Positions 33,578-33,801 of a stretch of 64,000 bases of DNA are shown here, in pieces (the stretch's first letter is position 1; the number at the start of each line of letters is the position of its first letter). Source of the DNA: Mobula hypostoma (lineage: Eukaryota); contig NC_086108.1 in the NCBI RefSeq assembly GCF_963921235.1, positions 7,130,001 to 7,194,000 on the forward strand, written 5' to 3'. A program made the position numbers and the translations under genes. The notes under the pieces are model-generated. The model did not search any database. It was given only the letters and a program-made list of their open reading frames with translations, and was not told where the DNA came from.

Positions 33578-33801
33578 TCCCTGTGGATATCGCTTCGCAC
33601 GAAACGAAGGTCTGAACAGGCAGGGAAGGAGAATTAAAAATCCTCATGAATACCACCTTAAGGAGTGTAAGGTTCTGCACAGGCGAGGTGCAAATTAAAA
33701 ATCCTCGTGAATACCGCCTTAAGAAGTGTAAGGGTCTGCATAGGCGAGGTGTAAAAGGTTCTGTGGATACCGCCCTAAGTAGGGGTCTGCATGGGCAGAA
33801 C
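33578..33801 (+). ncRNA. Four tandem covarying stem-loops in the ERV 5' leader (structured cis-element, function unknown)
   Basis: Copies at 33578-33626, 33642-33688, 33703-33749 and 33758-33801; different but complementary stems around conserved TGRATAYCR and KTCTGMAYRGG segments. Confidence 0.7.

Follow-up and report, generated by a model that had tools for sequence, protein, structure and literature searches.

The window, by which we mean the whole 64,000-nucleotide stretch of Mobula hypostoma DNA analysed here, carries a provirus whose genes—protease, reverse transcriptase, an integrase whose C-terminal domain is of MLV type, and an env in which TM is gamma-type—mark it as a class I retrovirus (Table 1). 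The provirus lies in a host 95-nt satellite, with the insertion point at GAAGTTAT^CCACAC of the satellite and TTAT flanking both LTRs; because it is inserted in the satellite, the 95-nt repeat is not part of the LTR. An inverted satellite block lies farther downstream, and between satellite blocks there is a U6atac minor-spliceosomal snRNA gene or copy, which was the only match at Rfam gathering score in the whole window. The capsid part of Gag (35055-35957) has no Pfam match up to an E-value of 1, and its relatives, which are annotated as uncharacterised, come from rays (74-89% identity), bamboo shark (58-62%) and cyprinids (47-50%). An in-frame stop (35958-35960) lies just 5' of the single zinc knuckle of NC in this copy, and the best PDB matches of that knuckle are lentiviral NC knuckles, not MLV NC.

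Table 1. Features of the provirus, its leader and its surroundings (positions in the window; the slash in splice-site-like motifs stands before the GT)
Feature	Position	Strand	Details
Host 95-nt satellite, upstream block	32337-32613		~3 copies
Provirus	32614-42016	+	class I; several frames broken in this copy
5' LTR	32614..33228	+	98.5% match over 615 nt to 41402-42016
TATA-like CTATAAAAAA in 5' LTR	~33081		
ATTAAA in 5' LTR	~33155		
Primer-binding site (PBS)	33233..33250	+	TGGTGTAGTCGGCAGGAT; other copies TGGCGTAGTCGGCAGGA
5' splice-site-like GGG/GTAAGT	33521..33529	+	GT at 33524; 7/9 matches to CAG/GTAAGT
8-nt perfect palindrome CCACGTGG	33560..33567	+	identical in 16/19 aligned copies; remaining 3 read CCATGTGG
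5' splice-site-like TTG/GTAAGT	33570..33578	+	GT 33573-33574; abuts unit 1
Unit 1 (U1 type)	33578..33626	+	outer stem TCCCTGT/GCAGGGA including U.G pair; 64.8 bits (covariance model)
Unit 1, 5-bp reading	33579-33625		CCCTG / TGGATATCG / CTTCG-CACGAAA-CGAAG / GTCTGAACAGG / CAGGG
Unit 2 (U2 type, decayed copy)	33642..33688	+	CCTCA/CGAGG, inner hairpin CCTTA-AGGAGTG-TAAGG; 67.0 bits
Unit 3 (U2 type)	33703..33749	+	CCTCG/CGAGG, inner hairpin CCTTA-AGAAGTG-TAAGG; 74.5 bits
Unit 4 (U4 type)	33758..33801	+	outer stem GTTCTGT/GCAGAAC including U.G pair; inner hairpin CCCT-AAGT-AGGG; 61.7 bits
Unit 4, 5-bp reading	33759-33800		TTCTG / TGGATACCG / CCCT-AAGT-AGGG / GTCTGCATGGG / CAGAA
gag start, first open stretch	33960..34907	+	no Pfam match
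CCHC zinc knuckle of NC, single (CWGCNQPGHIRRDC)	35985..36026	+	zf-CCHC, E 9e-6
env, TM part	40454..40903	+	gamma-type TLV_coat, PF00429, E 2.3e-9
3' LTR	41402..42016	+	pair of 5' LTR
Host 95-nt satellite, downstream block	42017-53298		~119 copies
U6atac snRNA gene or copy	57866-57979	+	RF00619, 74.4 bits, E 4.5e-16
Inverted satellite block	58906-59522		

Between the PBS, which we take to be of tRNA-Ser type, and gag, the leader contains several landmarks. The first 5' splice-site-like motif is retained in most of the 19 aligned copies, with subfamily B reading GTGAGT. The second, which an earlier note on this DNA had placed right before the block of interest, is there on direct reading, and the U1 outer stem begins with its last T. 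The site at 33524 is as good as that at 33573, and a further site of this kind lies inside gag at 34018. The palindrome CCACGTGG could serve as a dimerisation initiation site; read as DNA, it is also a canonical E-box.

The first finding of this study is that an array of structured units occupies the leader between the motifs at 33524 and 33573, themselves downstream of the PBS, and the gag AUG (33960). The strings that the earlier note had listed for the stems and loops of the four units in 33578-33801 are all present exactly as given, and the layout that it had proposed—outer stem / TGRATAYCR / inner hairpin / KTCTGMAYRGG / outer stem—is found in all four. Units measure 44-49 nt, with 5-7 bp and 4-5 bp split by an 8/10-nt internal loop (5' G-R-A-U-A-C-C-G facing 5' G-U-C-U-G-M-A-Y-R-G), and the module that they share consists of a 6-7-bp outer helix, this asymmetric conserved internal loop and a short inner hairpin that varies freely at its apical loop (CACGAAA/TACGAGA, AGAAGTG/AGAAAAG and AAGT/GAGAAA in the three unit types). 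RNAalifold returned the two-stem fold unaided from the four window units, with 11 pairs, eight of them changed on both sides, including the U.G pair that extends the outer stem. The outer stems do keep pairing while their sequence changes, as had been claimed, but the helix is longer than the 5 bp originally drawn (columns 9/45, and 3/51 in U1 and U4). In unit 1, the loops beside the extended outer stem are GGATATCG on the 5' side and GTCTGAACAG on the 3' side. The CCTC(A)-(C)GAGG outer stem described for unit 2 is present, but its A.C mismatch is a private CpG-type decay of the window copy, since most genomic copies read CCTCG. Tandem Repeats Finder reports a 61-nt tandem (90%) made of units 2 and 3, with units 1 and 4 outside it, which are therefore too diverged to be called as plain repeats. 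A covariance model built from the four units, a check that the earlier note had suggested, matches these four sites only in the 64-kb window.

The covariation reported for both stems is real between unit types, but within a type there are decay mutations only. In an alignment of 140 units from 30 sources, pairing is seen in 96.4% of cells vs 82.4% after shuffling, with 0 of 500 shuffles reaching the observed value, and it drops to 34-60% when partners are slid. Two of five measures show no excess over shuffles, namely pairs with change on both sides (8 vs 7.7) and further pair types (16 vs 17.4), because compensatory change is confined to comparisons between the three unit types. This change produces the outer-stem versions CCCTG/CAGGG, CCTCG/CGAGG and TTCTG/CAGAA, and the inner-stem versions CTTCG/CGAAG, CCTTA/TAAGG and CCCT/AGGG. 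It amounts to about nine events—eight double changes in ten pairs, plus U-A vs G-C at the added seventh outer pair—and no further compensatory change was seen among ~250 units of this one genome. The pairs that lengthen the outer stem vary as well. Column 9-45 is U.G in 170, U-A in 33, C-G in 28 and something else in 5 of 236 units, and in the same numbering column 3 pairs with column 51 in U1 (U-A) and in U4 (G-C). In a set of 135 units from both subfamilies, the extra pair 9-53 is UG 74, UA 17, CG 15 and other 2, and the extra pair 3-59 is UA 31 and GC 25.

The second finding is that the array is a regular part of the leader throughout a large ERV family. In the 3.48-Gb genome, the 261-nt block has at least 46 matches with 79-100% identity, and the capsid part of Gag has 133, so that gag-bearing loci of the family number >130. 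The loop pattern occurs 301 times vs 5 for the reversed control, counted with an IUPAC loop pattern. The covariance model itself found 140 units in the window plus 29 loci (among them two overlapping locus pairs), 72 strong and 8 chance-level matches in 20 further loci, and units in 14/20 leaders 5' of the lowest-identity gag matches. In these last 20 leaders, the 14 have the same three unit types, one has a truncated unit, two have an array outside the stretch taken, and three show deletions or no leader match; none has a new stem variant.

Altogether, the array is present in 62 of 64 loci examined. The earlier description as a four-copy element is thus true of this locus, but elsewhere arrays reach 10 units and mostly have 3-5. 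The U1 type normally comes first and the U4 type last, with six arrays lacking one end unit, and the commonest layouts among the 64 loci are 1-2-2-4 (~25 loci), 1-2-4 (18) and 1-1-2-4 (~6). Which unit is multiplied differs by lineage: the U2 type in subfamily A and the U1 type in several loci of subfamily B, where it is duplicated, two or three times, together with a doubled donor-like motif GGTAAGGTAAGT. Such expansions recur at several loci of one subfamily and must therefore have taken place while the virus was replicating. The contigs of one organism contain, in fragments only, U1-like variants and fewer units. Two loci depart from the pattern in their own way. In a ten-unit array (L020, G000:C1:220924464-220925091), several U2-type units carry the same CpG-decay variants, which suggests tandem expansion after integration. 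At L059 (G000:C82:12302752-12304952), a U4-type unit stands alone, with an unrelated 88 nt where units 1-3 and the donor-like motifs would be expected, a private rearrangement that is unique among 40 scored matches.

The third finding, which gives the array its biological weight, is that evolution has treated its parts very differently. We compared subfamily A (11 copies) with subfamily B (8 copies), all with four-unit arrays and with other loci left out, and counted fixed differences. These are rare in stems (1/73) and internal loops (3/75), and more frequent in apical loops (7/21) and linkers (6/21), both at about 30%, in unit flanks (5/24), the segment from PBS to array (29/301) and the segment from array to gag (53/241). 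Stems and internal loops together (4/148) differ from apical loops, linkers and flanks (18/66; Fisher p = 2.6e-7) and from the rest of the leader (123/708; Fisher p = 3.5e-7), the latter figure also taking in R-U5 (23/100), the PBS (5/17) and the apical-loop, linker and flank rows. Constrained and free sites alternate on a scale of 5-10 nt, a pattern that recombination between subfamilies cannot produce, and we conclude that stems and internal loops are under strong purifying selection. The counts bear out, between virus lineages as between unit types, the earlier observation that apical loops are free while internal loops are kept. Taken together, stem covariation and constraint between subfamilies uphold the core of the earlier note, i.e. 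a selected RNA structural motif in an ERV leader 3' of a 5' splice-site-like sequence, and we are highly confident that the unit is a selected RNA structural module.

This module does not correspond to any element that we could identify. An Rfam scan of 32800-34200 on both strands, with E up to 10, gave two chance-level matches only (XIST A repeat and DnaX). Self-cleaving ribozymes (hammerhead, HDV, hairpin, twister, twister-sister, pistol and hatchet) have no Rfam match on either strand, and two Rfam scans thus agree with the earlier statement that the units fit no ribozyme consensus. The gammaretrovirus core encapsidation signal, presumably the Rfam family Gammaretro_CES, has no covariance-model match here and there are no GACG tetraloop hairpins, so the array does not belong to that family. 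Kink-turns and box C/D motifs, defined by tandem sheared G.A pairs after a 3-nt bulge, were rejected as no register puts GA opposite GA beside either helix in all three unit types, and a loop E or hammerhead core does not fit the consensus when the loops are read by eye. The units are too short for a viral pre-miRNA with its near-continuous stem of ~22 bp. A coding repeat is also rejected, since a 61-nt period does not preserve the reading frame and a minus-strand ORF (33504-33815) has no Pfam match. Outside this genome, two loop patterns hit 3 + 7 loci in viral contigs, all without stems and scoring at most 13.7 bits vs 24-74 for true units, and one loop pattern hit a single locus in metagenome contigs, a chance match without stems. 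Searches of the literature outside subscription journals, by topic and by loop strings, returned no description of the element.

What might such an array do? Helices that change yet stay paired, an invariant asymmetric G-rich loop, apical loops and linkers under no such constraint, and a copy number that varies together suggest sequence-specific recognition of the internal loop. We infer that the ligand is Gag, through its NC domain, and that the function is packaging. In the model that we favour, to which we would give a little less than an even chance, the array would be a set of multivalent Gag/NC recognition modules, central to the packaging signal (Psi). Each internal loop, kept open by the helix on either side of it, would bind the Gag protein of the same virus through its zinc-knuckle NC domain; the repeated units would form the multivalent core of Psi, and the palindrome CCACGUGG just upstream could serve as the dimerisation site. 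A virus with a gamma-type env needs a spliced env mRNA, an RNA that particles should exclude, and the confinement of the array to unspliced RNA that the earlier note had deduced from the adjoining donor motif is plausible. The single CCHC knuckle of this gag is consistent with an NC ligand. The position of the array, 3' of the PBS and the donor-like motifs, 5' of gag and beside a conserved palindrome, is one in which packaging and dimerisation signals are generally found, packaging regions of retroviruses lying as a rule between the splice donor and gag (PMC3247676). UCUG, or Py-Py-Py-G, is described as the recognition sequence of MoMuLV NC, with multiple exposed copies proposed to drive Gag binding (PMC3247676, PMC7599994). 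In every unit of the array there is a UCUG, single-stranded in appearance, beside a helix: whatever the unit type, the inner stem is in most cases followed immediately on its 3' side by GTCTG, of which the rare variants (GCCTG, GGCTG and GTTTG) are decay forms. However, the whole internal loop is conserved, which runs counter to recognition of UCUG only, and since the knuckle is of lentiviral sequence type, the UCUG specificity of MLV NC cannot simply carry over.

In its proposed working, the array most resembles Moloney MLV Psi (DIS-2/SL-C/SL-D) and the internal loops through which other retroviruses bind Gag. Array and MLV Psi both belong to class I viruses with a single-knuckle NC. Both elements also lie between a leader splice donor (here, a donor-like motif) and gag, with several UCUG motifs beside helices and a palindrome nearby (PMC3247676, PMC7599994). 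The gammaretroviral core encapsidation signal is characterised by a pair of hairpins with GACG tetraloops (PMC3247676). Unlike MLV Psi, the array lacks that hairpin pair and any sequence or model similarity to it, and it is distinguished by repeated modules, a fully conserved 8/10-nt internal loop, a variable copy number and a lentiviral-type knuckle in the cognate Gag. In HIV-1 SL1 and in other purine-rich internal loops bound by Gag (the ssPurines of MMTV and MPMV), a G-rich internal loop between helices near a palindromic dimerisation site is the primary Gag contact. Those loops are single sites in a large three-dimensional leader fold, whereas the unit described here is an autonomous, tandemly repeated hairpin.

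Instead of Gag, the ligand might be a host factor—NXF1 or an RBM15-type adaptor—acting on nuclear export, stability or retention of unspliced RNA in the manner of a CTE, with activity rising as units are multiplied, which we consider unlikely, if by no means negligible. The virus is simple: gag, pro-pol and env are its only genes, and since a Rev-like gene would find no space among them, a cis-acting element is needed to export the unspliced RNA. A conserved loop clamped by covarying helices in 3-10 repeats, with apical loops that do not matter, is moreover an export-element design, as exemplified by the MPMV CTE and the HIV RRE. Furthermore, columns 10-11 and 43-44, if they face each other, would give G.G and R.R next to U.G, which is reminiscent of the purine-purine pairs in the Rev site. 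The CTE of MPMV/SRV is indeed a repeated conserved internal loop in a covarying helix and a protein-binding module of a simple retrovirus. However, it consists of two loops of fixed sequence in one long hairpin with rotational symmetry, 3' of env, which binds NXF1, and known export elements lie 3', whereas the array is in the 5' leader, next to PBS and gag, a position typical of packaging. To our knowledge, the CTE loop sequences are unrelated to the internal loops of the array, in which we see no likeness to them. More generally, the unit might be a new autonomous RNA fold, its two helices enclosing a conserved purine-rich asymmetric loop, that can be multimerised to dock something other than Gag—a host export or retention factor, as a cartilaginous-fish ERV counterpart of CTE or RRE—or whose loop has ligand-binding or catalytic activity, a proposition that we rate somewhat lower again.

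A role in the control of splicing, in which hairpins and purine-rich linkers 3' of GGUAAGU tune or suppress the donor, or act as NRS-like decoys, so that sufficient full-length RNA is left, is in our opinion improbable. The NRS of RSV, located towards the 5' end of the genome, combines purine-rich sequence with motifs that act as decoy 5' splice sites. Similarly, the final GTAAGT base opens the U1-type outer stem, linkers of the array are A/G-rich, and subfamily B repeats the consensus donor GGTAAGGTAAGT, doubled, with each U1-type unit. However, the NRS is part of gag and lacks repeated hairpins built around a conserved internal loop, and only one of the three unit types has a donor motif here, the U2- and U4-type units being equally conserved without it. 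The linkers are, moreover, among the least conserved parts of the array. In contigs of four public runs from four organisms, of which the RNA or DNA type was guessed, comparison with 33000-41800 gave no joint from 33573, nor from 33524 or 34018, a result that has no bearing on expression or splicing.

That the structure acts on the antisense strand, in an antisense transcript or in minus-strand DNA, or that the DNA itself acts through palindromes bound by proteins, seems to us very improbable, in spite of what folding energies might suggest. The sense strand of the array has no unusual stability compared with dinucleotide shuffles (z = 0.01), and in a +/-150-nt context the partition function often gives U2-type stems low probability, which is erratic because identical neighbours can cross-pair. 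The antisense strand reaches z = -2.03, with the same trend per unit, and in its fold the units stand out cleanly, a 4-bp helix being added in the middle. Wobble pairs are indecisive, since of the two informative positions one speaks for each strand. On the sense strand, column 12-50 is A-U in 53 rows and unpaired (mostly A.C) in 55; on the antisense strand it would be A-U or G.U throughout, as would column 12-42 in the 236-unit numbering (A-U or A.C on sense). Conversely, column 9-53 is U.G in 74/108 distinct rows and, as with column 9-45 in the 236-unit numbering, U.G on the sense strand becomes an A.C mismatch on the antisense strand. We infer that the sense strand is the functional one, because this last pair is contiguous with the outer helix and is moved to U-A or C-G by unit type, because all genes (gag, pol and env) are on the + strand, so that sense RNA certainly exists, and because antisense z-scores are inflated by G.U pairs, the sense strand being A-rich. 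As for the DNA level, GTCTG/CAGAC and CACGTG resemble transcription-factor sites, but the binding of such factors leaves compensatory change in two stems around non-palindromic loops unexplained.

Least probable of all is a tandem repeat without function, its arms kept by template switching or gene conversion and passively copied, for although unit number shifts easily (the ten-unit locus having probably expanded post-integration), units 2 and 3 form a plain tandem and the sense strand gives no stability signal, the unit types differ at half of their stem positions and still pair around internal loops that are alike, changes between subfamilies avoid stems and internal loops at a 5-10-nt scale, and gene conversion would homogenise types that are distinct in all 62 arrays.

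The significance of an array that we read as a probable site of specific recognition, with Gag as the preferred ligand, is severalfold. Detailed knowledge of cis-acting RNA signals in retroviruses comes from a few mammalian and avian viruses, and we know of almost none described for the large class I lineages of fishes. A retroviral leader cis-element made from a repeated, self-contained module is apparently new. First, a 45-nt module marked out by evolution is a minimal object for binding, structural and reporter work. Second, arrays of 1 to 10 units are a natural dosage series for studying multivalency in genome recognition. With Gag as the ligand, we would have before us a packaging signal of unusual simplicity, made of modules; with a host factor, a new export or retention element. 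The unit could also seed an RNA family model for the annotation of fish ERVs.

Two further observations concern the family rather than the array. The PBS differs by subfamily, TGGCGTAGTCGGCAGGA as against TGGCGTCACGAACAGGA in subfamily B (e.g. L027 and L046), and, to judge from these sites, there has been a primer switch inside one ERV family. Contigs from two organisms (runs X1 and X15) join 35920 to 37077, skipping 1156 nt, with 8 nt shared and GT..AG ends; this joint is probably a deletion variant without NC-protease rather than a splice.
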